DNA of 28,904 nt from Pseudomonadota bacterium (lineage in GTDB: Bacteria > Bdellovibrionota > FAC87 > UBA2466). The stretch covers positions 1 to 28,904 of the forward strand of contig JAYSWN010000111.1 of NCBI GenBank assembly GCA_043718025.1, in the 5' to 3' direction. The first letter of the stretch is position 1; the number at the start of each line of letters is the position of its first letter. Under the pieces are notes generated by a model, which was not told where the DNA came from, ran no database searches, and was given only the letters and a program-made list of their open reading frames with translations. This document shows, piece by piece, positions 4,902 to 27,700 of this stretch. The translations under genes and the position numbers were made by a program.

Positions 4902-5188
4902 AAATCTCGATTCGTTGGGAGTTAGGCTAATTGCTTAAGAGAAGCATCAAAGTGTGCTGAATTTCTTATCATCTGTAGCTACGCACGTCATTGGGCAAAC
5001 TCATAAACGAAGAATTAGAAAGATCGGCCATGGAATTCGAAAGGGAGAGCTATCGAATAATGTCGTGATGCGCAGACCTGCCGCAAAAAAATCAACCAAC
5101 TGCTCAAGATAAACTAGCCAAAAAGGTATGTGTGAAACGATTCCGCGATCGGAGAAGATGTTTAAGCCTTCAAAAAAGGATAAACATC

Positions 5189-8998: not shown

Positions 8999-10423
8999 AT
9001 GTTCAAACGCGGCCATCAACGTTTTTTCGCCTTCGTTCTTTTTCTGGTTTTTCTCATGGGTTGTGAAAAGAAAGAGTCGGCGCAACAAAGAGCGGTAAAG
9101 TTATCCTTGCACCTCGCCCAGTCCGGTTCGACACTCGAGGTAAGGGGAGAGGTCGCCGTTCGGGCGGCAATGGAACTTTGGGCTCCCGCTCTTGAAGGCG
9201 GAACATTGGGAATTCGCGGCGCGGCAGCCGGCGTTACGAAGTTTTCAGTGAATTGTGTGGATCTAAGTTCGCCAGGCTTTGCGCAATTTCTAGAACAAAA
9301 TGCTGGAGGTGTTTCTAGCGAACAAACTACGACCGCCGACGCCGCGCCAACACAGCGTTACCTCAAGATAGTGAATACCCCCGAGGCTGTAGAAAAATAC
9401 TATAAATTACGCGCGGTGGCCTGGTCAGGGATTTCGCAGGCGGCGATTAATCAAATTGCGGTTTGTCCCCCTGCCCCCCCTTTAACGGGAGAGGTCACCA
9501 CGCTACCGAACAGCCCCGTTGATATTGGCCAGTTAACCAAACCCGTGTGTCAACGAGCAGATAGAACCACATCCGCGGTTACTTGCCCCGAAGGCAGCAC
9601 TCCGGCCATTGAAGGTAAGTGCCCCCTTCCCGCTGGCAGTAGCCCTGCACCCTCCTGCTATCCCGGAAGCCAAGGCGACTTCAAAACCTGCCAAGGAAAA
9701 ATGAATCCACCTGTAGGTTGTAAGGAAATTGGAAGTCACTGGAGCCCAGTTCCGCCCTTGCCTGCCGGCGGACCGAATTCAGCCTGCCCCTGTGAAGTTG
9801 GCGACTGCACGACTTTATATCAAGATTTTTCGTGCAATCTTTGCGGGCAGATCTGCTGCGTTTCATTTGAAATAGGAACTCACCAAGGGCCGTTGGATCC
9901 CGTATCCGGCCTCGGTGCGTATTGCGCCTTCGGGTGCTTTGCCAAAGGCACCAAGATTCAGATGGAAGATCGGTCGGAAAAGCTGGCCGAAGAGATCAAA
10001 GCCGGAGACTCCCTGTGGAACCCCATCAAAAAATCAGGGGTACGAGTAAAGCGCGTTGCTCAGGGAACTGACCTTGAAGGTTTCTACGAACTAAAGGCCG
10101 GTACCCGCACGCTAACCGTAACCGCGATTCATCCCCTGCCAACCAAGCGGGGAATGCTTTTGGCCAAAGAGCTAACCGTGGGCGACATAGTCTTCGATGC
10201 GGAGAATCGCCCCCTGAAACTAGAGTCGATACGCCCACTCATTGACCAGGGCGCACCCACCTATAACTTTGACCTCGATGCTAAAACCAATGACCCAAAT
10301 GGCCGAATTTTGGTGGGCAATGGTATCGCCACCGGCGATCTAAAAACACAAAGCGACTTGCAGAAAAAAGGCTTTAGCCACGACCTGGTGAAAAAGCGAC
10401 TCGCGCAACCTAAACTTCACTAA
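8999..10423 (+). CDS. Cys/Pro-rich lipoprotein with C-terminal Hint (Hedgehog/intein-like) autoprocessing domain
   Basis: FLVFLMG-C lipobox; Hint block A G|CFAKGTKIQMED (Cys313, nt 9935), IKAGD, block B LTVTAIHP, block F TYNF, block G ILVGNGIATGD. Confidence 0.88.
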   Translation: MFKRGHQRFFAFVLFLVFLMGCEKKESAQQRAVKLSLHLAQSGSTLEVRGEVAVRAAMELWAPALEGGTLGIRGAAAGVTKFSVNCVDLSSPGFAQFLEQNAGGVSSEQTTTADAAPTQRYLKIVNTPEAVEKYYKLRAVAWSGISQAAINQIAVCPPAPPLTGEVTTLPNSPVDIGQLTKPVCQRADRTTSAVTCPEGSTPAIEGKCPLPAGSSPAPSCYPGSQGDFKTCQGKMNPPVGCKEIGSHWSPVPPLPAGGPNSACPCEVGDCTTLYQDFSCNLCGQICCVSFEIGTHQGPLDPVSGLGAYCAFGCFAKGTKIQMEDRSEKLAEEIKAGDSLWNPIKKSGVRVKRVAQGTDLEGFYELKAGTRTLTVTAIHPLPTKRGMLLAKELTVGDIVFDAENRPLKLESIRPLIDQGAPTYNFDLDAKTNDPNGRILVGNGIATGDLKTQSDLQKKGFSHDLVKKRLAQPKLH

Positions 10424-12184: not shown

Positions 12185-13294
12185 TCATTGTGGCTTTTCA
12201 AAAACCTGCATATTGGCGATACCGTAGTACACGGGTTGCGAAGTGGTTAGGTGTCGAAACCCCACGGCTTCAACAAAAGACTGTTGCTCGGCGGGCGTCA
12301 TAAAATCGGTTTTAAAAAGAGAGTGAGCATTTTTTGCGGTGAGAATCGCCACGTCCAAGGCGGTAAGATCAGGGTTATTCCTATAGGCACTGCGCACAAT
12401 TTCTTTCAGAAACTGCCGCCCCGTTGCGGCGTCGTTTGCTTGAAGCACGGGGTCAATCAGTATGAATTTAGCCCCCGGTTTTAAACTGTTATAGATATTT
12501 TGCAGTGCCGTTTTGCGCTGGGCAGTGGGTACCGCAAACAGGGTGAGTACCATCGAAGCTGCGTCGTATTGCTCGATGGGAAACATATGAGGATCACTTG
12601 CGCTACCCCGTCCGGTCCAAAAACGGCCGAAGTTAGCAAGACCAGGATCAGAATATTTGGCAGCGTTTAGATCAGTGATTTCATTCAAACGCCAATTGCT
12701 AATGTTGATACCGGCTCCGGCGATGTCGATCCCGCTAAGAATCGTACGAGGATTGCGAACCACAGTGGCGATACCAAGATTTCCGTCTCCAATTCCCACA
12801 TCGAGAACAAGCGGTGGCGAGCCGTTGAGTGCCGTAGCTCCGTCAAAGCGTGGAAAATGATCGATCGTCTGCTGTACCATTTCACGGTGACCGTCAGTGT
12901 GAGTTGGTACGGCGTGAAATCCCGTATTGAGGTAGAGAGCCCAATTACGAGCGGGAGAAAGTCTACCTAGCACGTCGTTAATCGGGCCGTAAACAGTCGG
13001 ATGGTCAGCCACCAGATCTACCAACCTTAAGGCATCTGCCAAAGATTCAATTTTTCCAAATGCTGGACGAGCAATCGACTGTTCAATGAATATCAACCCC
13101 TCACCCAAGGCCTGCCTCACAAACAATTCTCGCAGCTGTGCGTCTTCTCTTTGAATTTTGGCGGCGATCTCGGGAGAAAGGAGGATAAGCGAGTTATTGC
13201 AAAAAGGAGGGATCGCGATGCGATCGTCGGCGAAAACAGCTGACGTCAACAAAACCAATATTCCAACGACCCAATTTTTAACGAAACTTTCCAT
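12185..13294 (-). CDS. Class I SAM-dependent methyltransferase with N-terminal signal peptide
   Basis: Motif I VLDVGIGDG, post-I GID, YDAASM, motif SLKPGAKFILID; signal MESFVKNWVVGILVLLTSAVFA. Confidence 0.85.
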   Translation of the reverse strand: MESFVKNWVVGILVLLTSAVFADDRIAIPPFCNNSLILLSPEIAAKIQREDAQLRELFVRQALGEGLIFIEQSIARPAFGKIESLADALRLVDLVADHPTVYGPINDVLGRLSPARNWALYLNTGFHAVPTHTDGHREMVQQTIDHFPRFDGATALNGSPPLVLDVGIGDGNLGIATVVRNPRTILSGIDIAGAGINISNWRLNEITDLNAAKYSDPGLANFGRFWTGRGSASDPHMFPIEQYDAASMVLTLFAVPTAQRKTALQNIYNSLKPGAKFILIDPVLQANDAATGRQFLKEIVRSAYRNNPDLTALDVAILTAKNAHSLFKTDFMTPAEQQSFVEAVGFRHLTTSQPVYYGIANMQVFEKPQ

Positions 13295-13342
13295 TTTGGC
13301 TCTACCTAACGCTTAATGAAAACCTTCCGACGCCGTTAAGAA

Positions 13343-13359
13343 TGCAATTGGATGGCCAA
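13343..13359 (-). promoter_or_regulatory. Putative sigma54 (-24/-12) promoter for the methyltransferase gene
   Basis: Minus strand reads TTGGCCATCCAATTGCA, exact GG-N10-GC spacing, ~50 nt upstream of the ATG at 13294. Confidence 0.6.
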
Positions 13360-13558
13360 TTTCGTGAGGGAAATGACAGTCCGATTCAAGCACTTAGCGA
13401 TGTATTCAGACGGTCGCCAGGGGACCGACCGTCAACCGGACCCTTGATCGCGCAAAAAAATGACCACCGTGGTTCGAGCACTTTTGCGAATGCCCCTACT
13501 CAAATCACTTTTCCAATAGGGACTGCCTTTTCATTGTGCTAAGCATTTCTCCTCAAAA

Positions 13559-14500
13559 GTGAGCAAGATGAAATTAAAACGGAGGCAGTGGGACTTTCCC
13601 CATTTGGGGTGTATCCTTTTTTGGTTATTCCCCTATTCAAGCTTCGCTTGGAACTGCGCCGATCTGGTTGTTTCGCTGAATGGTTCGCGCTCCCTTGCCA
13701 GACATGCGAGAGCAGCAGAGGTGGCGTTCGAGTGGGCGCGAGTTGAAAAGATACTAAGCACCCTCCTTGTCGCCGGCCCGCGAAGGCCGATAAACGGCTA
13801 CTCCGATTTGCTTATCCCCATTGGTGGACCAAGTACCCTGCACGGAATCGATGAAACTGGGGTTTGGACGAAAAACGACGACCCCGTAACCGACACGCTT
13901 TTTGCCTTGAACCTACCGCCAGAAAATCAAACCACCGTTTGGCAAATGCTATCGAGCTACGAACGCGGGCTGTTGGTTGAACACTTAGCTCTCTATTTCT
14001 CCCGTGGTCGGTACGATGAACGCTTTCTACAACACTGGATCACCAACCCATTAAAGCTCGCTTTAGACACAAGCTTCCACGCCGGCGATCACGGCGATAC
14101 GCCGATTTACGGCATTTCTCCCACCCAACTGATTCGCTCTGCCGATCGCGGTAACTCGTCGGGGGTTTGTAGGCAGGGAAACCTAGCCCTGGTCGGTCTC
14201 TTGATGGAATTAGGAGCCACCCCTGACTACGTGGTTGCCGTGGCGGGTTCAGACTCAAACGATCGTCACATGTGGACAGAGTACCGAACGGGCCTAAACG
14301 ATAAATGGCTCGCCGTCGACGCCACCCCCTATTCAAACCGCGAAAGCTCAATAGACCATCTGCGATGGATGTCCGCTAACGGGTTTCGAAGTCGATTTCC
14401 GTACGACATAATAGTGCACGAGGCCTTTGCAGTGTCGATCGATAGCGCATTGAGATGCCAACGTGAAGTGGTTCGGGCGCGGTATCGTTTGAGTGATTAA
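13559..14500 (+). CDS. Secreted transglutaminase-like (Cys-His-Asp) protein
   Basis: GVCRQ...LLMELG, HMWTEY, WLAVDATP triad; signal ending SSFA; start may be ATG 13568. Confidence 0.85.
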   Translation: MSKMKLKRRQWDFPHLGCILFWLFPYSSFAWNCADLVVSLNGSRSLARHARAAEVAFEWARVEKILSTLLVAGPRRPINGYSDLLIPIGGPSTLHGIDETGVWTKNDDPVTDTLFALNLPPENQTTVWQMLSSYERGLLVEHLALYFSRGRYDERFLQHWITNPLKLALDTSFHAGDHGDTPIYGISPTQLIRSADRGNSSGVCRQGNLALVGLLMELGATPDYVVAVAGSDSNDRHMWTEYRTGLNDKWLAVDATPYSNRESSIDHLRWMSANGFRSRFPYDIIVHEAFAVSIDSALRCQREVVRARYRLSD

Positions 14501-14572
14501 ATGGGTTGGTTTCCGTTGCATAAGCTAAGCCCCTCCCATGAGCAATGAGTTAGGCCCGGCATCATCTACAAT

Positions 14573-15370
14573 TCACCTCTTTTTTTTCAGCAGCTCTCGA
14601 GGGCAACTCGGGTGAACCCAAGTCTCAAGGGACGCGCGTTCTCTTTCTAACGCGCTAACGAGAAACGAAGCTTTGTGAGCTCGCGCTGCGTCCGAGACTT
14701 GGTAACGCTTAAGAAAGGCAATCCCCGCTTTAAACGCGGCAATCTCTTCTCTTTGCCGTTCCTCAAAGGTGGCTGGCTCGGGCCGAACACCAAGTTTAAG
14801 TTTTAGATGGGTCGGCAGATTGCCGTATATTTCGTGCCCTAACGCCGTCAATAGCCGAATGTAGGCATCCGCATGTTGTTTCCCGTCAGTGGGACTCCAA
14901 AAAATTCGATCCACCAAAATAAAAACGAAGGTGATTAACTCCGTACCTTCGCCGGCGGTGGCGGCGGTAAAGGTGAACGCGTCCGAACCATCACTTGCGG
15001 CGGACTCACGAGAATGATCAAAAACCTGAAGCGCAAGCGGATCGGTAGAGTCCGCGAGCACCACATGAACCCGCCGCTTAGCCCGGCTGGTATACGGATT
15101 TTGACGAGCGGGAGGATTCGCCTTCACTTCGTCCATAGCCAACTGCAGCGCTTCTTCAATAATCGGGCGGTTTTGGGCGGAGATACGGCTGGTGGTTTCA
15201 AAGCTGAACTCTGGTGCACCAACGGCGCCACTCACCCAAAGACCGATACTCGAAATGGTAAGCAAAAAAGTAGCCGGCAGCGGCAGTCGCTTAATGCGCT
15301 TCTTCCGCCAAAATCCAAATGGACTACCCGGCGCCGCTCGCTTCGATTCATTGCGCTGTTCCATGATCAA
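14573..15370 (-). CDS. Exported protein with degenerate zincin-like motif (HEIYG...REE); start uncertain
   Basis: Hydrophobic segment FLLTISSIGLWVSGAVGA; LLTALGHEIYGN; downstream EEIAAF; begins 1 nt after the HxlR stop. Confidence 0.65.
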   Translation of the reverse strand: MIMEQRNESKRAAPGSPFGFWRKKRIKRLPLPATFLLTISSIGLWVSGAVGAPEFSFETTSRISAQNRPIIEEALQLAMDEVKANPPARQNPYTSRAKRRVHVVLADSTDPLALQVFDHSRESAASDGSDAFTFTAATAGEGTELITFVFILVDRIFWSPTDGKQHADAYIRLLTALGHEIYGNLPTHLKLKLGVRPEPATFEERQREEIAAFKAGIAFLKRYQVSDAARAHKASFLVSALERERASLETWVHPSCPRELLKKKR

Positions 15371-15371
15371 G

Positions 15372-15692
15372 CTAGTTCTCCTGACCCCACGTCAACAAGG
15401 CAGACAGAACCGGCCTTAAAGTCTTACCTTTGGGGGTAATTGAATATTCCACGCGCGGGGGAACCTCGGCGTAAACTTTTCGGGAAATGAGACGGGCTTT
15501 TTCTAAATCGCGCAACTGAGTGGTGAGCATGCGTTGAGTAATGCGCGGAATGGTGCGTTTTAACTCGTTAAAGCGGCGCGTGTCGTCGAGCAGCCGGTGC
15601 AAGATGACGCCTTTCCATTTTCCGCCGATGAGATCGAGGGCCGCCTCGATGGGGCAGTTTTCATAATCGGGGTGCCGTTGTTTTCTGGCCAT
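15372..15692 (-). CDS. HxlR-family (DUF24) winged-helix transcriptional regulator
   Basis: CPIEAALDLIGGKWKGVIL, RRFNELKR, ITQRMLTTQLRDLE, VYAEVPPRVEYSIT; N-terminal Cys typical of redox-sensing members. Confidence 0.95.
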   Translation of the reverse strand: MARKQRHPDYENCPIEAALDLIGGKWKGVILHRLLDDTRRFNELKRTIPRITQRMLTTQLRDLEKARLISRKVYAEVPPRVEYSITPKGKTLRPVLSALLTWGQEN

Positions 15693-15714
15693 GAATCACC
15701 TTATAAATCAGCAA

Positions 15715-15771
15715 TAGTATACAAAACGTACCTATATGCTTTATTTGTGCGTACTTCACAACTGGTAACTA
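15715..15771. promoter_or_regulatory. Divergent promoter region with probable HxlR-family operator(s)
   Basis: AT-rich spacer with imperfect inverted repeat TAGTATACAAAACGTACCTA and GTGCGTACTT...GTAACTA between the divergent regulator and monooxygenase genes. Confidence 0.4.
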
Positions 15772-15819
15772 TCTTCGCTAAGACACTCCTCATTGAACCC
15801 CCTAACCCAGGAGATAAAG

Positions 15820-16116
15820 ATGAAGTTAGCGTTGTTTGCCAGACTAGAAGCCAAAGCCGGAAAAGAACAAGAGGTCGCTAAGTTGCTAGAGACCGGGCTC
15901 AAGCTTGCCCACGAAGAGACCACCACCCCGGTGTGGTTTGCCTTGCGACTCGGCCCCTCGACGTTCGGCATTTTTGATGCCTTTACCGACGAGAATGGCC
16001 GCACCAAACACCTTAACGGGCCGATTGCGGCGGCCCTAATGGCGCAGGCTCCCCACCTACTTTCTCAGGCCCCAACGATTGAGCGTATCGAGGTGCTAGG
16101 AGCAAAGCTTAGCTAA
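15820..16116 (+). CDS. Antibiotic biosynthesis monooxygenase (ABM)-family / putative quinol monooxygenase
   Basis: AGGAG then ATG 15820; LEAKAGKE, WFALRLGPSTFGIFDAF, HLNGPIAAAL. Confidence 0.9.
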   Translation: MKLALFARLEAKAGKEQEVAKLLETGLKLAHEETTTPVWFALRLGPSTFGIFDAFTDENGRTKHLNGPIAAALMAQAPHLLSQAPTIERIEVLGAKLS

Positions 16117-16127
16117 TTGATTCAATG

Positions 16128-16161
16128 GCCCGTCTCTTTTCTGATCAAAAAAGAGACGGGC
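16128..16161 (+). terminator. 13-bp stem-loop downstream of the ABM gene, probable terminator
   Basis: GCCCGTCTCTTTT-ctgatcaa-AAAAGAGACGGGC perfect stem; no canonical U-tract follows. Confidence 0.6.
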
Positions 16162-16318
16162 TAAACTGAGTTGAACTTCGAGTTGATAGCTCGCCCTAAA
16201 AATGTCCAGAACGCTGCCGCGCGTCGCACGAATCGCCTTAAAGACTGATACCATTTCACTGATTTATCTTTTTTGGCGACAATCGCCTGCCTTTCACTCT
16301 CACCAAAGGGAAACCTAA

Positions 16319-17584
16319 ATGCTTTCAAAAGTGATTTTCACGCTTGTACCAATATTCTCTATTGCGCTACTCAGCTCATGCGGAAAAAGCTCTTCGTCAG
16401 GAACGGTTGTGGCCCCGCATTTTGCCATCAATGGCGTCACCAACGTTCGTGGAGTTGAATTTCTTCAAGCAGGGGCATTCTGGGGGCAGGCGCTTCGTCA
16501 CTTCAATTTGGATACCCGGCCCGCGCCCGACATAAATAACAGCGGGGTGGCAACCAATGTGTCGTCACTCCAATTTTATTTTACTCGCATTCAACTCTGC
16601 GAAAAATTGACCGTAACCGGATCGGGTTACAACAACCAAGAAAATTGCATGACCGTTTACACAGCTGGCGACGGCGATAATGCGTATGACACCTTTAAAA
16701 TCGCCAACGCTGAAGCCTACACCAGCGAGAACTGGGTCGACCTAATGAGTGCGGCCTCGCTCACCAGCTTTTCGGGACGGGCTGGTTCGGCCACCGCCGG
16801 CACCTACAATTACGGAATCATCGAAAACCGAAAGCCCATCAAACTCAACGCCCAATTTGCTACCACTAATTACGGCACGTTAAGAACTTGCAAGGGGGGA
16901 ACGATCACGGTTCAAGGAAGTGGGCTTGATTTCCAAGAGATTTCCACCGTTGGCAACATGACAACCTGCACGCGTGAAACCATGACGATGGGTACAAATG
17001 GGGGCGGCAAGTGGTTCAAGTTTCAAAGTCCGGTCACCGTGGAGTCGGGCAAAAAGTATATTCTTGATCTAGGTTACAACCCCGAAGAGGCACTATTTGG
17101 GGGGACGAGCAGCATTTCTAACACCTACCGCGACGCAACTCGCGCCATTGCCTGGCCGCAGCTACAAATTTCGCCGGTACTTCGTGACACCACAAAAAAG
17201 ACAGTTAGAGAGCAGTACGAGATTAGTAACTTTGTTCTAGGATCGGTACCGGGCAAAATTGTGGTCGATCTCTACTTTGCCGGCACCAAAGCTGACGTGG
17301 GAACCGGAACCATCACCGGCGCCCAGACGCGATTTGTGCATGGGGCCGCGGCGACGTCGGCGTGTTATGCAGAAACGCCTTACTCGGTAACTGGAACGGG
17401 AAGTTCGGTCACTTTAAAATCTTGGAACGATGTTTCAATTGTAGAAACGTTGGCCCGATCGACCACCGAGACCATTGGCGGGACTCAATCCATCCCGGTA
17501 AATACAGGCGTAATTTCTGGCTGCGGCATTACCGCCACGGCAACTACCGCCACGGTAACCTTTAGGGGAGTGGTTGAGCTCTAA
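16319..17584 (+). CDS. Thr/Gly/Ser-rich beta-structured lipoprotein of unknown function
   Basis: Lipobox IALLSS-C followed by GKSSSSG linker; six further Cys; 421 aa. Confidence 0.85.
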   Translation: MLSKVIFTLVPIFSIALLSSCGKSSSSGTVVAPHFAINGVTNVRGVEFLQAGAFWGQALRHFNLDTRPAPDINNSGVATNVSSLQFYFTRIQLCEKLTVTGSGYNNQENCMTVYTAGDGDNAYDTFKIANAEAYTSENWVDLMSAASLTSFSGRAGSATAGTYNYGIIENRKPIKLNAQFATTNYGTLRTCKGGTITVQGSGLDFQEISTVGNMTTCTRETMTMGTNGGGKWFKFQSPVTVESGKKYILDLGYNPEEALFGGTSSISNTYRDATRAIAWPQLQISPVLRDTTKKTVREQYEISNFVLGSVPGKIVVDLYFAGTKADVGTGTITGAQTRFVHGAAATSACYAETPYSVTGTGSSVTLKSWNDVSIVETLARSTTETIGGTQSIPVNTGVISGCGITATATTATVTFRGVVEL

Positions 17585-17611
17585 CCCGGCTGGCTCAGAG
17601 TCGCTCAACGC

Positions 17612-19468
17612 TTAAAAGGCGAAGAGATCCGGGTTACCCAAATAACGTCTGAGATGTTCTTGCCCACGATTGTACGCTGCAATCGTGGGCCCAAGGGCCT
17701 CACTCAGAGTGGCAACTGCATCCGCCGAATAGGCCGCGGCGGTTAGCGAAATTTCGCGGCTTACGGTTTGCGGCGTGAAATTAAATAGACCAAGTCCCAT
17801 ATACGTTTTTATGGCCGAGCGATAAACATGCCACGACCCAGTCGATGGAATGCGCATTGCTGATTGATTCAGCAAGACAAAGTTCACCTTCAAATCAACG
17901 AGCGTTTTTTTGGGGTTTGGGTCGCCTTGGGCGGCCAATTTTTCTATTGCTCTTCGGTAGGAAACCACTAAAAGTTCTTCACCCGTAAGCTCAGCGTCAC
18001 TACTCACTTCAATCGCCTTAAATTCGCTAAGAAACTCGTCGAGATTTTGCAAACCATCGTACTCAAGCCGATTATGGATATTTCGTTTCCTTACCACTCT
18101 ACCCTGGGCCGCAAAACCGTACTGCTCTGAGTCTTTAACTGCGTAGTCGGCCAGTGAGTCTCTATATTCGGCCATCGGCCCATCCCCCAAAAAATTGAGG
18201 GCGCTTTGCCCTTCTTCGTTTTGCAAGCTGGAGTATTTCTGGGCGGCCAAAATGAGTAGATGTCGAGATAAGAACGAAAAGTCTCTTAGCTCAATTACAT
18301 TTTTTTCATCGGCATCGCTCAAGAACTCGGTGCGGTTTTGCTGAGCACTTAGCCACAGCTGCAGGGCCTCAAAAGCCGAAAGCTGATTACCCGAGGCGCC
18401 AACCAGCGACCCCACCGCCGGGTTTACGTTCTTAATATCAATTGATTGCAGGGCATCTTTCAGGGGACGAACATGCGCCAGTTGTCCGGGTGAATTTTGG
18501 TAACCCGAAAAATCATGCATCAAATAGGTTCGGCGATAGACATTACCGATTCGCTCGTTTAACGAGTGGCCAAAGAGATAGGCCTCATCAAGGTTGCCAC
18601 CCAAGAGAATCAGCTCACGCGAAGCAAAATAAAGCCCCATGCGCAAGGTTTCGAAGAAAGCCTGACTACTAATTTGCGCCGCGCGACCCAACTCCCAAAC
18701 GTAAGGGTATTTTTGGCGATCAATCGGGAGTACCAGATCGTCACTCTCTAAATGCAATCTAAGCCTTTGGCCCCCCGGTTGGCCCGAAAGAATCCACGTA
18801 GCACCTTCCTTAAGCTGATAGGTGGCCGCTTTGGCCTCCTCTTCGGGGGTGCGTTCGTGTCCAAGATCAAATTGCGCAAAGTAGTTGGCCACTCCGGCCG
18901 CAATGGGCTCCCGGCGGGCAAAATCGGGAACCCGGCCAAACTGATCGATCAGTTCGCCGCCCGTGCGCTCAGTAGTGGCCTCGATAAAGAGCACTTGGTT
19001 GGGATTGAGCTGCCGTGGCACCAAGGCCTGAGCCTGACGCAATCGGGCGCTGATGTAGTTAGTGTCTTCCATCACTTGCAGTGGAAAGAACTGGTTACGA
19101 TCAAGGAGGGTACGGCCCCGACTGCCCGAGCCCACTTCGGTGTGAGCCGGGTTAGCTTGTAGAAATGGACTCCCACGGCGTAGGGCCTGCGCCACTGCCG
19201 ACGGCGTAGACTTGAATTGGCCCAGGATGCTCGCCTCACCCCGATTGACGGAGCTGAAGCCCTCGCCGAAATTACGAAAATCGACCAGCCCGGCCGTATC
19301 GAAAGTGCGGCCAAAATAGTTCCAGACCGTTAGCGATGGGCTTTGGGCCGGCAGCCCCCGCAGACGCAGCTCTCGGGCGCAAATCGAGGGGCCGATATCC
19401 GCCGGGTCAATGACGCCGAGAGCCCCCCCCTGAGCCAAGACCCCTATAGTGATGAGCCAACGCACCAT
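17612..19468 (-). CDS. Exported hypothetical protein, possibly with a GNAT/LuxI-like acyltransferase fold centrally
   Basis: 618-aa ORF; weak N-terminal signal; VWELGRAA and GHSL...VYRRTY loosely resemble acyltransferase motifs (function low confidence). Confidence 0.7.
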   Translation of the reverse strand: MVRWLITIGVLAQGGALGVIDPADIGPSICARELRLRGLPAQSPSLTVWNYFGRTFDTAGLVDFRNFGEGFSSVNRGEASILGQFKSTPSAVAQALRRGSPFLQANPAHTEVGSGSRGRTLLDRNQFFPLQVMEDTNYISARLRQAQALVPRQLNPNQVLFIEATTERTGGELIDQFGRVPDFARREPIAAGVANYFAQFDLGHERTPEEEAKAATYQLKEGATWILSGQPGGQRLRLHLESDDLVLPIDRQKYPYVWELGRAAQISSQAFFETLRMGLYFASRELILLGGNLDEAYLFGHSLNERIGNVYRRTYLMHDFSGYQNSPGQLAHVRPLKDALQSIDIKNVNPAVGSLVGASGNQLSAFEALQLWLSAQQNRTEFLSDADEKNVIELRDFSFLSRHLLILAAQKYSSLQNEEGQSALNFLGDGPMAEYRDSLADYAVKDSEQYGFAAQGRVVRKRNIHNRLEYDGLQNLDEFLSEFKAIEVSSDAELTGEELLVVSYRRAIEKLAAQGDPNPKKTLVDLKVNFVLLNQSAMRIPSTGSWHVYRSAIKTYMGLGLFNFTPQTVSREISLTAAAYSADAVATLSEALGPTIAAYNRGQEHLRRYLGNPDLFAF

Positions 19469-19537
19469 GCGAAGTGGGTTAACACGAATTCAATAAATTC
19501 GATACTCTGCGAAGGCGAAGGGGGGCTTCGCCGATCG

Positions 19538-19546
19538 TGCTAGAAT
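19538..19546 (+). promoter_or_regulatory. Extended -10 element (TGcTAGAAT) upstream of the 19559 gene
   Basis: TGn-TAGAAT 12 nt before the ATG; no Shine-Dalgarno sequence. Confidence 0.45.
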
Positions 19547-19558
19547 TAAACACTCCTC

Positions 19559-20416
19559 ATGCGCCGCTTACTCTTTTCTACCACCCTACTTTTTATGCTC
19601 TCGGCCCATCCGAATGCACAATCAGAACCTAGCGTATTTGGTTCAGTCGAATGCCAGAAGGCCTTAAAAGAAATTCGCCGCGAACGCGCCATTATTTACG
19701 CCTTGAAAGCAGAGGACTTAGGCCACGAGGGCCGCGAAATCGACGAGTATATTGAGCGCGCCATTCGCCGCTCCTACTTCAAAGGGCTCACGCGCGACGC
19801 CGCGCAAAGGCTCAATGGCACCAAGTTGTTTATCAGCTACTTAAAGGCACAGCGAACTTTTCTGTTGCCCAAACGGCAAAGAAAAGACGCCGTGCTGGCG
19901 ACCTCAAAACTGCTTGAAGAATTGGCCGCCGAAGCCGACCCCACCCTCGGGGGAAGGCGACCAATTTTAGCGCTGCTGGTCGAGGCAAAGGCGCCCGAGT
20001 CTCTGGCGGATGCCGCCCAAATAGAGTCATTTATGACCCTTCAGTTGTACCTATCGAACCTACGGGCAGAAGTTTCAAAGGGATTTCGCGACCATTTGCC
20101 GACGGATAAAACAATCGCCGACAGCGACCCGGCCGCGGTGGCTAAAATAGTAGAAGACCTTTCTCAAGAATCTTTCGCCCGGCTTCAATCGAGTTTACAA
20201 TCGGCATCCCCCAACACGGGAAAACCGAATTTCTTGCCCGTTTCGGTGGCCGACTACCCAAGCCAGCTAAGTAGGGTATTGAATGCCCCGTCGATACCAC
20301 CGGCAATCAAAGAAGAGCTTACTTTGCAGAAAAATTTTGAAGAAAAATACCAAGCCTCGCCTAGCCAAATGCAACGGCAGTTCGTAGCTGAATTGGTCGG
20401 CTATTTTTTAGAATAA
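19559..20416 (+). CDS. Secreted alpha-helical hypothetical protein
   Basis: Signal MRRLLFSTTLLFMLSAHPNA; 285 aa; single Cys. Confidence 0.8.
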   Translation: MRRLLFSTTLLFMLSAHPNAQSEPSVFGSVECQKALKEIRRERAIIYALKAEDLGHEGREIDEYIERAIRRSYFKGLTRDAAQRLNGTKLFISYLKAQRTFLLPKRQRKDAVLATSKLLEELAAEADPTLGGRRPILALLVEAKAPESLADAAQIESFMTLQLYLSNLRAEVSKGFRDHLPTDKTIADSDPAAVAKIVEDLSQESFARLQSSLQSASPNTGKPNFLPVSVADYPSQLSRVLNAPSIPPAIKEELTLQKNFEEKYQASPSQMQRQFVAELVGYFLE

Positions 20417-20475
20417 AAAAACTCGCCAAAACAGGCGTTGGCCAGACCACAAAGTGACGGCGCATCTTTTGCGAA

Positions 20476-21006
20476 TCAGGCCGTTGCCTCGCAGCACTTC
20501 TTATATTTCTTACCGCTTTGGCAGGGGCAGGGGTCATTACGGCCAACCTTAGATCCTTCACGCACCACGGTAGCAGGCTGTGGCGTGTCGTGATGGCCTT
20601 CGCCCTCTTTATGCTCGTGGGCGTCGCCATCTACGAACAACCACTGGCCCTCTTTAGTTTTGCGAAAAGTGGCCACCTCGTGGTGATCTAAACCCACGCC
20701 CTCTCTTTCGTACGTCGCCGTGAACTCAACCAGTCCCGTGCTGTCGGAAGGGCCACCTTTTTTAGTGTCCTGAATCTTTAGCCCCTTCCATTTAGAACCT
20801 TCGGCCCATTGCCTAGTCCCCACTTCATCAAAGTCTTTTTTCGAGCCGTTCACCATCGTCTTTTTTATGTATTCGATATCGGCACGCGTGTAGGCGGTGT
20901 AGCGGCTTCGCATCAATTGTTCGGCCGTATCGGGGTGCCGTTTTCCGGCCAGATAGGGGCCGCAGCACAATTCGAAAGTACTATCTAATCCGCAGGGGCA
21001 TTTCAT
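20476..21006 (-). CDS. ychJ: YchJ family (UPF0225) protein with SEC-C metal-binding motifs
   Basis: [35 protein letters not shown]-terminal [20 protein letters not shown]. Confidence 0.95.
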
Positions 21007-21042
21007 TGAATCTCCAGTTTCTCCACACGCCTTAGTTTCCCG

Positions 21043-21795
21043 CTAAGGATGGCCCGGCGAGCGAGTTTTCAAAAACAGTAAAGTGGGGTCTGTGTTCGAA
21101 AGCGCCGCCACCCTAACCGTCAAACTGGGATAATAGCCAGCGATCTCTTCTAATACGACTATATCTTTTCCACTTAACGGACTGGACTGCGGGTGGGTAT
21201 GAAGTAGTACGATTTCGGAAAAGAGGGCGGATTGCCCTTCGGCGCGAATGGCCGCTACGGCCTCGTTGTAAGAGTTTGAAATATCGTCGCCATCGATCTC
21301 TCGCCGATCTTTTGAGTTGATTCGGGTCGAGGAGACAACTCTTCCCTGCGGCGAAATAAATAGCCAAACTCCAATTTCCGCCCCGTGCTGCAAAGACTCG
21401 GCTCGAAGTTCAGCGGCCAATTCTCTCATAGGCGGAGAGAGCGCCTGCGTGTCGAGCACCAATTGGTCACTCGGCTTGCCGGTTGCCACCCGTTTTGAGA
21501 CTCCCCTGAATACGACCGTGTCGGATTGTTCAATTCTAACTCTCCGGCCTTTGTGTTGAGCCCAATCGATGAGCGAGCAATCTGAAGAGCACGTCACCCT
21601 CACTACATTCTCACCGCGATTCTCCTCGGCAATAAATTTCCAGGGAAGAATTACTCGTCCACTGCTCGGATAGGCTTCTAACACCTTGAATGCCAGGTCG
21701 CAGCTTGAGTGCAGAAAACCCGATTGCGCATATACGACATTTGTCGCCAGGCTGGCAAAAAGCAAGGTCCTGCCAAATGTAGAAAAGAAAGCCAT
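21043..21795 (-). CDS. Secreted JAB/MPN+ (JAMM) motif metalloprotein
   Basis: Upstream Glu (GAEIG) and LHTHPQSSPLSGKD (HxH...SxxD); signal ending VVYA; ATG 3 nt after the stop of the giant gene. Confidence 0.75.
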   Translation of the reverse strand: MAFFSTFGRTLLFASLATNVVYAQSGFLHSSCDLAFKVLEAYPSSGRVILPWKFIAEENRGENVVRVTCSSDCSLIDWAQHKGRRVRIEQSDTVVFRGVSKRVATGKPSDQLVLDTQALSPPMRELAAELRAESLQHGAEIGVWLFISPQGRVVSSTRINSKDRREIDGDDISNSYNEAVAAIRAEGQSALFSEIVLLHTHPQSSPLSGKDIVVLEEIAGYYPSLTVRVAALSNTDPTLLFLKTRSPGHP

Positions 21796-21798
21796 CGC

Positions 21799-24700
21799 CT
21801 ACGCAACATACTTTCTGCGGTAGCGGCGTCCAAAAAAAAGCGCGCCCACCAAGGTGAGTAAATTGAGCAACATTCCCCAACCCGGCAACTCAGGCCTATT
21901 TCCGATTTGGTGAACACTGGCGCAGGAGCCCGCCGAAGCCCTTTGTTCGCTTCGAGGTTCACCCTTTGCGCTTTGACTCACTTGCAGCATCGGATCGCCT
22001 AGCAAAGTCCACGAACGGATAATATCGGCGGTGCCCAGCGACACTCCACCGCGGTTTTTGGCCAAACGAATGGCGTCTCCCAAACGCATCGAACCTTCGG
22101 CAAGTATTTGGTAGAGGGCTTTTTGAAACGGTTCTTGAAGATCCGGCGAAGTCATTGAGGTTGATCCCCAAAAGGCAATTGCGCCGCCGGTGGGATTAAA
22201 AATCAATCTCTCCGCCAAACTCCGAAAGGCCGGGTCAGCGTCATAGAAGTAAGTATTCAAACAGTTCATCGCCACAATGATTGGCAGAGTTTTATTATCC
22301 AACTTTTCGGCGTCAGCGTTTTGAAAAAATTCGGCCGCGGCCCAACGATCTTCGGCCCCGTGCCCCATAAAGTGGATAAAGGCACTTCCGGCACTAAACG
22401 CCGCCACCAGTTTTTGCTTCAGATCCTCGTCACTTTGCGAGCCTCTAAGTAAACGATTCACCACCAACCCCGATTTAGAGGCCGTGATCTGGCTGGCCAA
22501 AGAATCGGCTTTGGCATGAAAATGCTCCCCGCCCAGCTGATCTTGGTCACTGATAAGGGTAATCTGGTTAGCCGCCACGCCGGTTGGCCGCGCCACCCCG
22601 CGCTCAAAACGGATCACTTTTTCCACGTAGGCCTGGATCAGCTCAGGGGTGCCGCCGGGAATGCGGCCGATGGCAAGATGAGGGGCATCACTCTCGTCAT
22701 CCAACGAAACGTACCAGTTATCGTTTCCGTAGTCCGCGTACAGCCCTTTGCTCAAGTGAACCGGTAAAACCCCTTTTGGATTGTAGTGCAGTTGGTTTTT
22801 CGGATCGTAAGTTCCGTCTCCCACCAGCACGACGTACTTGGGGGCCGGCGACTGCCAGTGGGTTACCACGTATTTTATAAACTCTTTAATTGCGACGGAC
22901 GACTCTGCCCCTTTACCAAACTCCATGTATATTTTTTCGAGGTCTACGAGTGCCGTACGGAACCCCTGGCTTTTTCGATATTCGGCCAGGGGGGAAATCG
23001 CGCCGAGCAGCTTTGCTGGGCCAAGGTAGAGCACGTCGGCCCCTTGGTCGGTAGCCACCAAGTTACTGCCCACGTTAAGTTCTATCGAGGCGGGTCTGGG
23101 CACTACCCCATTCTCAACCGCCCAAAACCGTCGTCCGAGAGTAGGATTGCCCGTAACTGTGCCAAACTGGATTTGATTTCCCGCTTCCGTTACTGAAGTA
23201 ACGACGCCATCCACAATCGTAAGACTATCGGCGTGAGTAATATCGTAGAGTTGAATGTGGGAACTGGTAAAACCGCCGATCGTGAGGGTGCTTCCCGTCT
23301 GGTAATTTAAAAACTCGGCTATTCCCTCTTCCGCCAGCCAATCGTGCGGGTAATCCACCACGATACGGTCTAAATTGATAATGTCGTAGTCACCGCCGAC
23401 GAGATCACCCACCGCCTCCAAATCAATTGCATTCTGCGTCGCCACGAAGCGATTGGCCGCCACCTCGAAAAGAGAGACGTGGGGTTCATTGGTCTGAAAC
23501 TCATCATCGCCCACGGCAATACCATTCACCTTAAGGCGAAGATGGTGCACCGGATTTTTTATCCGTACACCGGCCCCCCCTTTTACGTAGACTTTCACCG
23601 TCACGCTGCCCTGAGCGATAAGCGAGGGCAGCGAAACCACGGTACTGATCTTCTCTTCTCCTGGGGTGTGGGGCGGCGAATAGAATCTCCCCCATAAAAT
23701 GTGATCTAACCCCTCGCCGTAGGGCTCATTAAAAAATCCGAACGAAGCTTTTTCTAACGTTACGCGCTTGTTAAAATAGCGCTGGCTGCTTGGCGTGCCG
23801 ACGGGCACCCCCGAGATTCGGGCCATTCTCTTTCCAACTACCGAATCTAAATATAGGACCAAGGTGTTGTGGGCAGATTCTGCGGACTCGAAATACGGGG
23901 CAAAGAAGCGGATGAAATCACCCGACGAAAAAGTTCCGCTAACGCTACTCACTTCAATTGGCAGCTCAACCAAATCACGAAACAGCCTGAGTTTGGCGCT
24001 GTCCCCTCGCCAAAACGGCCCTTCTACCCCCGCAGAAACCAGATCATCGAAGCTCAGCTGATACAGTCCGGTCTTCGCGATTCTAATTTTGAGACCACCT
24101 TCTAGCCCGTAAGGACCGCTCGCTTCGGGCGCAGCTCCCGAATTCCAGGCCGGAGCTGGCCCAAGAAAAACATCGAAAATGATCTGGGTAGCCACTTCCG
24201 CGGTGCGCGAACCCGCACTGTAGCGCAGGGGGAAAATAGTTACCGGCAGAGAAATTTTATCTGAGCTCTCCACCGCTTTTCCCAACTGCACGGGTGAGGA
24301 CGGCGTAAATTCAGTTGCTGCGTAAAAGTTGGCATCAAAAGCCGGCTTCGGCCCAAGCGCCCCATTTTCTAAAACCCATTCGGGATTGGGGCTTATGGAA
24401 ATTGGACTCACCGTTATCGATTTTTGATCAACAAGCTTAAAGGTTGCCTCGGCCAGTTTCGGAATTTGCAGGTACAGAGTGCGTTCCAAATTTTCAGCTC
24501 GACCGGCCGTTCCGCCCACGGAGTAACCGTCGATAGCGATGTGCTCGTAGGGAAACACCGCCGGTGCCCGTTTTAGTGGGGCAACGTCGATGCGAACTCT
24601 TAGGGAGTGCGTGGTGTACGCAAGCAAAGTCACTCCCGGGGCAAGCTCCACTTGGCCCGGCGCAAAGCTATTGGCTTGGGCGGTGGCGGAGGGGGTGGAA

Positions 24701-27700
24701 CCGCCTTGGCTTCCGGTGATCGCACTAGATTGCGCGGCCGGAGCGGGGCCAAGAAACGCGAACGGCGTGGCCGGAAGTGGTCCATGCCTTTTGCGTTGTC
24801 CGGTCGTAGAAATGTCTTCGATCCAATAATAGTACGTGCGAGCGTTCGCCACGGTTCGGTCGAAAAACTGGTAGTGCCCATGCACCGTCCCCGTGGCCAA
24901 TGGGTTTCTCAACATCACGGGGTTGATTTGCACGGCCCCAAACTCTGGGTCTTCACTTCGATAGACGTTAAAGCCACTGTGTAAGATTTCTAGCCCCGTA
25001 ATCCAATCAACGAGGACCGAACCATCGTAGGGAATGGCTTGAAATTTGGTCAGCGTCACGGGAGAGGCGGCGGCCGTCATCGTGGCATTGCAAGTGGTGT
25101 TGCTCACCTTGCTTTGCACAACAGGAAAATCTACCGCCACAAAAAAGTCACCGAACCAGTTGGTAAAGCTCGTGGTCTGATTGGCGCACCCTGAAGAAAA
25201 GACCAGCCAGTAAGCCGTAGCCACGGTAGGGGGAGAATTGCCGGCGCCCCAGTTAAAACCAACGTAGTCGGCCGTGGCGGGTAACGTGCCCGTAGTATTC
25301 AACTGCAGCGCCTTGAGCGTTCCGCCGCAAGTTCCGGTGGCCGGCAAATCGGTAAACTGGCCGCCATTGAGCGTGCTCAATGTCGTTGTGCCGTTGACCT
25401 GTAAGCCATTGCAATCTAGCCACGCCATGACCCAACCGGTTAAATTTAAAGTGCCGGAAGTGGCCACGAACGACCACGTGCCGCTTCCCCCGTTTCGGGT
25501 CATCGTTCCCTTATTTGAAAGTGACTGCGGATAGCCATCGTTGGTTCCCGCTATTCGGAAAGTAGCGCCACTCACCGTAAAGGTTTGGGCGTTGGAAATT
25601 GCGACCGTAGCTCCTGAATCAACTAGAAAAGTTGCCGATGAGATCGCGGCCCCGTTGGGTAAGGTGAGAATGTCGCCATTGCGAACGTTAAAGGTGAACG
25701 TTTTGCCCGCGGTGATTACAAAGTTGTTGATCGTGAGATTATTATTGCCAATGTAGACGTACCCTCCCGCCGTCTTGTTAAAGACCAGGTAATTTAGAGC
25801 GGATGAACTCTGTAACGTGTTGTTAGTGGGTACCGCACCGTTGTCCCGAACCGAAATTGTGGCGGTTGCGCTGGCTTGGGTTATTGTTCCGGTATTCGTA
25901 ATAGAACCGTAGACGTCCAGATTTTGCCCAGTGTTTATCGTGAGCGTGCCGTTACCGATGGTAAGCGACTTACAGATGGCACCGGCCGCGCTAATGATCG
26001 GATTTCTTACCGCCGAATTGATCACGCAATTTTTAGTGGCGTCAGGAATCACTGTATTGGGACTCCAGTTTGTCGCCACGTTCCACGCCGTCGACGTGGT
26101 GCCGGTCCAAGTGATGGTGCTGCCAATCACGGTAATCGTGCGGCCACTCGCCGGGGGGGCAAACGATCCGTTGAAGGAGTAACTTTGGCTATTTACGACG
26201 TGGGCAGAAGAAGCGATCTTAGCGACAAGCGTAGCGCCGGCGGTGGCCGTTGACGCCACATCGTACTCTACATAAATGCAACGTTTCGGCGGCGACACAA
26301 GGCTTGATTGCACGATAACGCCGGTGAGGCCGCTAAAAGTGAGCGTGGGTGGACTACCGGTAAAAGTTAAAGCCGAACCCACCTGAGTTCCCCCCGTTCC
26401 GCTGCAGGCAGAATCATAATAGAGCCGCGCGCTACCCACGTCGGAGGCCGATCCGGTTCCGTCTAAAGTGATTTTAACCGACGTAATATTGGTGTCGGCA
26501 AAGCTACCCACCTGCGTCTGTTGAAATCCAAACCAACCGGCGCGAACTGAGGTGTCGCCCTGATTGGCGTTATTTACCCCGGCCGAAATCGAATGGACCC
26601 CAGACTGCGTGCCCGTGGTGTTGATGGCGGCACCTCCGCTGGTAGCGGAAACACTAAAGGTGTTGGCGGTGGGTGCAGGAGCGGCGGCAACGTAATAGGT
26701 GGTTGCGGCAACTAGCCCGGTCGGCAAAGCACCCGTAGTGCTAAATTGAACGGCCGCCCCGGCATTCAAGCCGTGAGCGTTCCAAGTGACCACTCCCGGT
26801 ACGGCGATGGCAATGGTAACCACGCCCGACAACCCTTCGGAAGTTAACTTCAAGGTAGTAGTCGGCGACGTCCAACTCACGAGGTAGGTCGGCGCGGTGG
26901 TGCAGCAGTTGGTGAGATCACCGCTATAGTTACTCACGGTTAATGTTCCCGCCGCCGCACTGGTTAAAATGGATTTAGTCCCGGTGGCGGCCGACCCCGC
27001 CTTATCGAATGTCATGCTACCCAGCGCATTTCCCGGAATCTGTCGATTAAGCGTCAACAAAATCGGATTGGTGCCCACGGGGTAGGTAAATGACCCATTC
27101 TGCATGTAGTAAGTGGCGTCCACCGTGGCACCGCCGTTAATCGTCAACCCAGCCACCGCCAGTTTACTGAAAGTGTAGTACTGAGCCTTAATGGTACCCG
27201 TGATCACCACCGCGCATCCGGTGGCGATTCCGGCACAAGTGAACGCGGCATTTTGCGCTGCGGATCCGACGATCTCTAAAGTTCCCAACGCATTTACGGT
27301 AAGGGTTCTTCCATCGCCGAGGGTGAGCGTGGCTCCCGGATCGATCATTAGGGTTCCCCCATTGACGGTGATAGTGCCCAAAACGGTGAGGTTCACTCCT
27401 GGAGTGATGCGCAAAATCCCTGCCGTAAGGGTTAAATTTCCACCGATGGTCCAGTTACTGTTCACGCTGACGGTCGGATTGGTCGCCGCCGTATTGTTGA
27501 TGACCACGTTTCCGGGGAATGTGGTCTGCGCCAAAATACTTTGGCTCGCCACGGTAGAGGCAAAAGAGAGATTACCCGTTACCGAGGTGAGAAACGTATA
27601 TCCGGTGCCGAGCTCAAGCCCGCCCAACAACGTCAACGTATTGGCCGTCCCGCCCCACGTCATCTTACCAAGATCGGGGAGCAACAAATTGGTGCAAGTG

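Follow-up and report, generated by a model that had tools for sequence, protein, structure and literature searches.

A terminal cysteine tag on exported proteins of a Bdellovibrionota bacterium and its possible role in effector delivery

The stretch analysed here (the window) comprises 28,904 nucleotides of contig JAYSWN010000111.1 (C15 in our numbering) of assembly GCA_043718025.1 (G000; 4.14 Mb, 92% complete), from a bacterium placed in the Bdellovibrionota. Six of its genes encode unrelated proteins that are predicted to be exported by the Sec route and that carry, close to one end of the chain, an element with the consensus Cys-x3-Leu/Phe-x2-hydrophobic. This element, referred to here as the tag, stands at either the N- or the C-terminal end, and its positions are counted from the Cys, which places Leu/Phe at +4 (Table 1). 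All six Cys codons lie where a preliminary description of the window had put them, and, as it also stated, the tag Cys is the only cysteine of the 369-, 265-, 618- and 285-residue proteins. The window is a hot spot of tagged genes, and over the whole genome the clustering is modest (25 of 101 tagged genes near another, 15 expected, p=0.027). Genes and signal peptides of G000 were called by our own hydrophobicity-based rules, not by SignalP, and no Rfam match occurs within the window.

The class I S-adenosylmethionine (SAM) methyltransferase named in the preliminary description is supported by Pfam and by AlphaFold2 (AF2) with Foldseek. Its other two named enzymes are less firm. The transglutaminase has no Pfam match and is recognised only by a Cys-His-Asp triad-like pattern, which recurs in 4/6 homologous loci; a search of PDB sequences returned only TAL proteins, through weak repeat matches added together, which is taken as an artefact. 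The JAB protein, also without a Pfam match, shows Atlas feature matches at 0.87-0.92 to DUF4329/JAB clusters, a lead only. A second tag that had been proposed at the C-terminus of the transglutaminase-like protein (LRCQREV) is kept in 0/4 full-length homologues; it is probably incidental and is not taken as a tag.

Table 1. Tagged genes and tags of the window (window coordinates), and the Lgt genes of the same assembly (contig:coordinates).
Feature	Position	Strand	Basis
Class I SAM methyltransferase, exported, 369 aa, single Cys, N-terminal tag	12185..13294	-	Pfam; AF2 + Foldseek
Methyltransferase tag, Cys32 to +7	13178..13201	-	sequence, alignment
Transglutaminase-like (Cys-His-Asp) protein, exported, N-terminal tag	13559..14500	+	start 13559 or 13568
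Transglutaminase-like tag, Cys33 to +7	13655..13678	+	sequence
Exported 265-aa protein, start uncertain, single Cys, C-terminal tag	14573..15370	-	sequence, homologues
265-aa protein C-terminal tag, Cys256 to +7	14582..14605	-	sequence
Exported 618-aa protein, single Cys, N-terminal tag	17612..19468	-	sequence
618-aa protein tag, Cys30 to +7	19358..19381	-	sequence
Exported 285-aa protein, single Cys, N-terminal tag	19559..20416	+	sequence
285-aa protein tag, Cys32 to +7	19652..19675	+	sequence
JAB/DUF4329-like protein, exported, 250 aa, N-terminal C-x3-F tag	21043..21795	-	Atlas feature lead
JAB-like protein tag, Cys32 to +7	21679..21702	-	sequence
Lgt genes of G000	C196:1064-1798; C199:124382-125098		gene search

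The tag is strongly over-represented in the exported proteins of the genome. The comparison of the motif with a shuffled background, suggested in the preliminary description, gives terminal C-x3-[LF] in 89 of 672 exported non-lipoproteins against 19.3±4.1 after shuffling (maximum 30 in 50 shuffles). This is a 4.6-fold enrichment and an excess of about 70 proteins, or roughly a tenth of the exported non-lipoproteins. The spacing is specific: among 601 exported non-lipoproteins (the set sizes differ by rule, 672 being that of one fixed rule used across all genomes), C-x3-L occurs at 13-35 residues past the start of the hydrophobic (h-) region in 46, against 9.2±2.9 after resampling, while neighbouring spacings stand out far less (C-x2-L 21 vs 9.7; C-x-L 15 vs 9.3; C-x4-L 15 vs 9.5). 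The N-terminal motif is not in excess in lipoproteins (1/143 vs 2.8), and cytoplasmic proteins show no such excess either (48/1514 vs 39). At the other end, 22/601 exported proteins have C-x3-L within the last 20 residues, compared with 0.7% deeper in. A test blind to the motif gives the same picture: in 186 exported proteins with a single mature Cys, that residue lies near the N-end in 58 (20 expected) and near the C-end in 31 (19.4 expected), with Leu at +4 in 22/58 and 17/31 of these, but in only 11/97 with an internal Cys. Both ends are tagged in two proteins (4.0 expected), so that a protein seldom has more than one tag. A profile-scored list for G000, from which proteins matching a lipobox expression were left out, has 101 members (61 N-terminal, 40 C-terminal), including a few evident false ones (NDH-2, a TolC-like protein, an NHL lipoprotein).

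Conservation was followed furthest in a tagged CP-ATP-grasp ligase encoded elsewhere in G000, for which 66 homologous loci were found, 57 of them with a complete frame. A signal peptide is present in 51 of these (in three by eye), and 50 of the 51 place a Cys within their final 45 residues, at identities of 30-44%; in 47 of the 50 it is the only mature Cys, and the linker ahead of it varies in length. Six proteins lack a signal peptide (in two from Planobispora the call was overridden by eye); four of them have no such Cys, one has a core Cys only and one starts inside the domain; signal-less proteins without a tag come from Minicystis, a Myxococcota metagenome-assembled genome, Planobispora and one member of the Bacteriovoracaceae. 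In a second ATP-grasp family (best 150 representatives), 27 proteins are called exported, of which 15 are C-tagged, 5 N-tagged, none both and 7 neither. Of the 123 not called exported, 21 match the loose C-terminal rule; inspection by eye assigns about half of these to the exported clade, as truncated or mis-called proteins, and shows core cysteines in the others. The ATP-grasp paralogues within G000 follow the same pattern (one N-tagged, one C-tagged, one cytoplasmic and untagged), and a ParB-like family has the C-terminal tag in 4/5 homologues. One exported ATP-grasp clade (L019:8813-10276 (+) and P0138-P0163) has a conserved CxxC in its first strand as well as the C-terminal tag.

Among the families of the window, the methyltransferase retains the Cys in 8/8 database homologues that have an N-terminus, with a hydrophobic residue at +3 or +4 (P0003, truncated, is left out), and in 4/4 full-length homologues of the transglutaminase-like protein an N-terminal Cys precedes a hydrophobic face. 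The 265-residue protein keeps its terminal Cys in 2/3 full-length homologues (L274 and L276, not L275), and of its fragments L278 has it and L279 does not. For the 618-residue protein, which has no Atlas match, one frameshifted homologue retains the Cys with Thr at +4, and one further distant match is ambiguous. The JAB-like protein has one homologue, truncated and uninformative for the tag, and the 285-residue protein has none among the 37 other genomes searched. As kin are not independent, all such homologue counts are to be read as patterns and not as p-values. Judged by these sequence comparisons, the tag tracks export across Bdellovibrionota families, and the position-flexible terminal tag on unrelated exported proteins, as first proposed, is upheld by genome-wide enrichment, by homologue conservation and by its use at either end within one family.

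It might be supposed that the tag is a by-product of a loose expression and of mis-called signal peptides. Only two of its positions are fixed, chance alone would give about 19 of the 89 matches, and several listed members are false. Against this stand the 4.6-fold excess over shuffles together with its absence at the N-termini of lipoproteins and cytoplasmic proteins, the motif-blind single-Cys test, and the 50/51 conservation in CP-ATP-grasp proteins of low identity. These enrichment, motif-blind and conservation tests refute the chance explanation, unless SignalP rejects most of these signal peptides, and its probability is minimal. The tag is very probably a real functional signal.

In its composition, the tag differs from 1166 internal C-x3-[LF] controls in the residues that would line one face of a helix. 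Position +7 is hydrophobic at a frequency of 0.65 (controls 0.32), positions +1, +2, +6 and +8 are depleted of hydrophobic residues, and the hydrophobic moment is raised (z=4.7). Position +3 is not enriched for hydrophobic residues in G000 tags (0.40 vs 0.38); in CP-ATP-grasp tags it is hydrophobic in 32/54. Helix-capping residues (S/T/D/N/G) are frequent at -1 (0.49 vs 0.28), and Pro is raised about 3-fold at -3 to -5. This combination would place the Cys at the N-terminus of a helix, past a loose linker; thiolates are reactive in that position. The AF2 model built on 52 CP-ATP-grasp sequences has a core ending in a strand, then coil, then a helix (549-559) that starts at Cys549, the tag block having a predicted local distance difference test score (pLDDT) of 64 versus 92 overall. 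The tag is thus predicted to fold as a short amphipathic helix. The tag Cys is the sole mature Cys in 39 of 95 tagged G000 proteins counted, a set partly selected for low Cys content.

The residues of the tag vary by lineage. Leu is found at +4 in 80/90 G000 seed tags (which were chosen for L/F at this position), and Phe in 11/15 CP-ATP-grasp homologues titled Bdellovibrionaceae; tags of G000 and G037 mostly have Leu, and 5/5 tags of G030 read C-x2-[IL]-L. Unrelated cargo of one locus has the same flavour (L183, L175). A flavour common to unrelated cargo would follow if all tags co-evolve with one reader encoded in the genome. It could also arise if tags paired with each other by disulfides, giving dimers or assemblies of separately made exports with no dedicated reader. 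The rarity of second tags on a protein, the modest clustering of tagged genes and the presence of operons with tagged parts (L025) agree with such pairing, but with one degenerate motif on some 70 unrelated proteins the pairing would be unspecific, 76/101 tagged genes are not near another, and the CP-ATP-grasp gene lacks a fixed partner gene. Tag-tag pairing is accordingly considered improbable.

The closest known parallel is mitochondrial. The intermembrane-space sorting or targeting signal (MISS/ITS) of Cox17 has hydrophobic residues at +3, +4 and +7 downstream of a docking Cys, and docks on Mia40 before forming a mixed disulfide (PMC2806287, Sideris et al. 2009). It too is a short amphipathic helix by one docking Cys, portable, and found on either side of the protein (PMC2806287). 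The tag has the corresponding helix face, with hydrophobic residues at +4 and +7 and an AF2 helix from the Cys in the CP-ATP-grasp protein. Unlike MISS/ITS, it is bacterial and found on Sec-exported proteins, its Cys is usually unpaired in the mature chain, Leu/Phe at +4 dominates, and no aromatic residue is needed at +7. The mitochondrial substrates also have twin CX3C/CX9C motifs and internal disulfides, whereas the tagged proteins do not, as the 47/50 CP-ATP-grasp count illustrates. The resemblance is one of analogy, not homology.

Several bacterial and eukaryotic signals share features with the tag. Lipoprotein signals, processed by Lgt, LspA and Lnt, place the lipobox Cys at +1 of the mature chain. 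Like them, the tag puts an invariant Cys close to where the mature chain begins in unrelated exports, but it has no lipobox, its information lies downstream of the Cys, and the Cys is past an AxA-like site or C-terminal. Under a permissive pattern, such a site lies 0-25 residues ahead of the Cys in 58/61 N-terminal tags, the distance being 0 in three only. Signals of the MYXO-CTERM type are also short, terminal and lineage-restricted, with an invariant Cys, and occur on dozens of unrelated proteins per genome; the tag differs in lacking a transmembrane segment or Arg cluster after the Cys and in being used at the N-end too. In C-terminal tags 4-29 residues follow the Cys, and these tails are polar at +1, +2, +6 and +8. 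The CaaX prenylation signal has its Cys exactly three residues before the C-terminus, whereas 4-40 residues follow the Cys in 54 CP-ATP-grasp homologues. The twin-arginine motif of the Tat pathway (S/T-R-R-x-F-L) is present in 0/101 tagged proteins. NCBIfam gives no sorting-signal match on the 59 tagged proteins among 60 scanned, and no model for the tag was found in Pfam, NCBIfam (60 proteins) or PADLOC (30 proteins). No description of the tag was found in the literature searched, mainly titles and abstracts, so that supplements or subscription papers could hold a mention; the accessible text of three Bdellovibrio papers (PMC12622784, PMC11003981, PMC12546842) does not mention it.

The invariant Cys next to an amphipathic helix could also suggest that the Cys is lipid-modified, by S-acylation or a diacylglyceryl-type transfer, the helix lying on a membrane and anchoring the cargo to the outer membrane, vesicles or prey membranes. 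Cys-containing sorting signals of myxobacteria have been proposed to be lipidated (bioRxiv 10.1101/2023.06.07.544157), and two Lgt genes are present in 5/5 genomes tested, the second copy of G030 being strongly diverged. These five include tag-poor genomes, however, and the tag has neither lipobox nor transmembrane segment, the N-terminal tag Cys lies 0-25 residues past the putative cleavage site instead of at +1, and a lipobox-like Cys coexists with the tag on some proteins. Lipidation is on balance unlikely, though it deserves to be kept in mind.

Most tagged proteins match nothing: 71 of the 101 were scanned and 26 had Pfam matches. Among the matched proteins are three ATP-grasp ligases, two Clp-type AAA+ proteins, two helicases, two methyltransferases, a GNAT protein, a polyketide synthase dehydratase, a NUDIX protein, an NIF phosphatase, two nucleases, peptidases and a VWA protein. 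A second scan, of 32 proteins, brought in a pyruvate-kinase-barrel protein, a family 2 glycosyltransferase (GT2) and a Zn-dehydrogenase-like protein. Cofactors of the cytoplasm (ATP, SAM, acyl-CoA, NAD(P)H; classes assigned by hand) are needed by 12/26 tagged proteins, one being the false member NDH-2, against 6/40 Pfam-matched proteins from a set of 89 untagged exported neighbours, in the main ordinary proteins of the envelope (Fisher p=0.01, for Pfam-matched proteins only and with heuristic signal peptides). The impression in the preliminary description that several cargo folds normally work in a cytoplasm is thus borne out by the enrichment of ATP-, SAM- and acyl-CoA-dependent enzymes. The pyruvate-kinase-barrel protein (L257:5004-6620 (-), G000:C225) has no PK_C domain match, and its cytoplasmic paralogue lacks both the signal peptide and the tag. 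Taken as a further test family, the exported pyruvate kinase offers only one close relative in the database, a fragment without the N-terminus.

Exported enzymes that need ATP or SAM are a puzzle, and the tag links them. Cargo that depends on ATP, SAM or acyl-CoA suggests a destination where these are present, most simply the interior of a prey cell. The relatives of the CP-ATP-grasp protein are mostly titled Bdellovibrionota, Bdellovibrionia, Bacteriovoracaceae or Oligoflexia, and from this kinship we infer that the source bacterium is a predator. Predator proteins with secretion signals occur in prey that were never entered (PMC11003981). Lone cysteines need protection in an oxidising periplasm and are handled in Escherichia coli by DsbG/DsbC (PMC4624244), so that an exposed Cys retained at a helix start suggests covalent use.

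That use might be a redox latch or quality-control handle, through which Dsb-type proteins keep the enzymes inactive or retain them in the predator periplasm, the tag being no delivery address. DsbG/DsbC activity on lone periplasmic cysteines (PMC4624244), four Thioredoxin_4 matches in G000 and the sufficiency of a signal peptide alone for secretion of a reporter (PMC12622784) would agree with a latch. A short terminal helix at either end would hardly block unrelated active sites of unrelated folds, however; the bias to cytoplasmic-cofactor enzymes is left unexplained, and Dsb counts do not follow tag abundance. A latch is regarded as a rather poor prospect.

The reading preferred here, with a probability of about 0.4 for the full chain of steps, is delivery. 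The amphipathic helix of the tag would dock on a putative periplasmic reader or carrier, with which the tag Cys would form a disulfide; the carrier would route the cargo into prey, where reduction would free it. Loading onto such a carrier through a disulfide or thioester, with delivery into prey, had been proposed in the preliminary description, and is the part of its reading that stays conjectural. By analogy with Mia40, predatory Bdellovibrionota would then possess, and this is put forward tentatively, a previously undescribed effector-delivery pathway, in which a portable Cys-helix label convergent with the Mia40 signal marks about a tenth of the non-lipoprotein secretome (helicases, Clp ATPases, ligases, methyltransferases, a pyruvate-kinase-like enzyme) for release in the prey cytoplasm. 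The A subunit of AB toxins is tethered by a disulfide. The proposed logic is similar, in that one disulfide would keep a cytoplasm-acting enzyme on its carrier until reduction releases it, but here no carrier was found, the cargo is a large and variable set, and the targets would be bacterial prey.

Several observations weigh against delivery. A Sec signal peptide alone brings NanoLuc to the supernatant in Bdellovibrio bacteriovorus (PMC12622784), so that the tag is not needed merely to leave the cell. Several CP-ATP-grasp homologues carry a lipobox-like Cys plus the tag, a poor fit to release into prey, and +4 is hydrophobic in only 43/54 CP-ATP-grasp tags. In the methyltransferase family alone the Cys segment may be structural or vestigial, because three methyltransferase-GNAT fusions without a signal peptide still hold it and AF2 models it at pLDDT 80-91 with a helix of 3 residues only. 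(In these fusions, P0009, P0010 and the L004:1410-3160 region (G007:C4), the signal peptide appears decayed and the segment persists.) The cargo comparison carries the limits given with it, and in the small samples taken the motif is at shuffle level in 7/9 other genomes of the phylum. Lastly, no reader of the tag was found among the candidates examined.

Candidates that failed as a reader include the paralogue families of the G000 secretome and the exported proteins shared with sampled loci. Around the CP-ATP-grasp gene only one neighbouring family recurs, in 11 loci, and no other neighbour is conserved, which also weighs against the delivery scheme. GspG, with its single Cys, does not follow tag abundance, a further mark against it: the tag-rich G000 and the tag-poor G032 both have one Cys in GspG, G036 has two and the tag-rich G030 has four (in G037 the residue lies outside the stretch compared). 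Counts of Lgt, secretin and DsbA-like genes do not follow tag abundance either. Erv1/Alr (PF04777) was found in 0/5 genomes, with control genomes equally silent. Six guessed tag words gave no match in a published table of prey-proteome peptides; being guesses, they are uninformative. Two groups of cysteine-bearing exported paralogues occur in G000: four in tandem at C232:24433-29614, which share a YCYF motif conserved close to the C-terminus and have two mature Cys apiece, and six of ~240 residues, whose mature chains contain two or four Cys and which have an acidic motif close to the start (C106:5908, C145:13370, C52:19400, C200:52786, C2:26507, C75:426).

In the families followed above the tag occurs across the phylum, but its abundance clearly differs between genomes. 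Random samples, all small, are above shuffles in G037 (8/27) and G030 (5/33) and at shuffle level in G138 (1/26), G139 (1/27), G140 (1/39), G142 (0/1), G036 (1/30), G026 (2/32) and G032 (0/31); the outgroup Minicystis has 0/7 tagged. A profile hidden Markov model of signal peptide plus tag (A1) mostly recovered its own training sequences in G000, and was for that reason not applied to other genomes.

How Bdellovibrio-like predators sort proteins and send them into prey is largely open, and a 2025 paper calls their secretion 'largely unexplored' (PMC12622784). A movable tag with two fixed positions on about 70 proteins of one genome offers a direct handle: it can be mutated, grafted onto reporters or used as bait for its reader, and it brings a large number of 'hypothetical' proteins together as a single functional class. 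If delivery is true, the tag would predict the effector repertoire of any such genome. Even under lipidation, tag-tag pairing or a redox latch, it would be a protein-handling signal absent from the libraries and from the accessible parts of the papers searched.

In the window, the tagged cluster is broken up by ordinary cytoplasmic genes at 15372-16116 and 20476-21006, among them YchJ with a SEC-C motif (Pfam) and what we take to be an HxlR-like regulator and a small monooxygenase-like gene. A gene for a 2354-residue protein (21799-28863, -) ends 3 bp ahead of the JAB-like gene on the same strand. It has a Peptidase C25 domain with His and Cys motifs present, is PorU-like below the NCBIfam cut-off, and has a tail with a Cys motif, hydrophobic stretch and Arg cluster that resembles MYXO-CTERM-type signals. 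On the other side lie a predicted lipoprotein (8999-10423, +), Cys-rich in its middle part and with a Hint/Vint-like domain at the C-terminus (weak Pfam match), and an astacin protease (5132-7534, +) continued by a helical unit of ~40 residues that is repeated about ten times and has no Pfam match. A frame of 1644 codons with many membrane segments runs off the contig end (3-4934, -) and presumably resembles cyclic beta-glucan synthase/phosphorylase.

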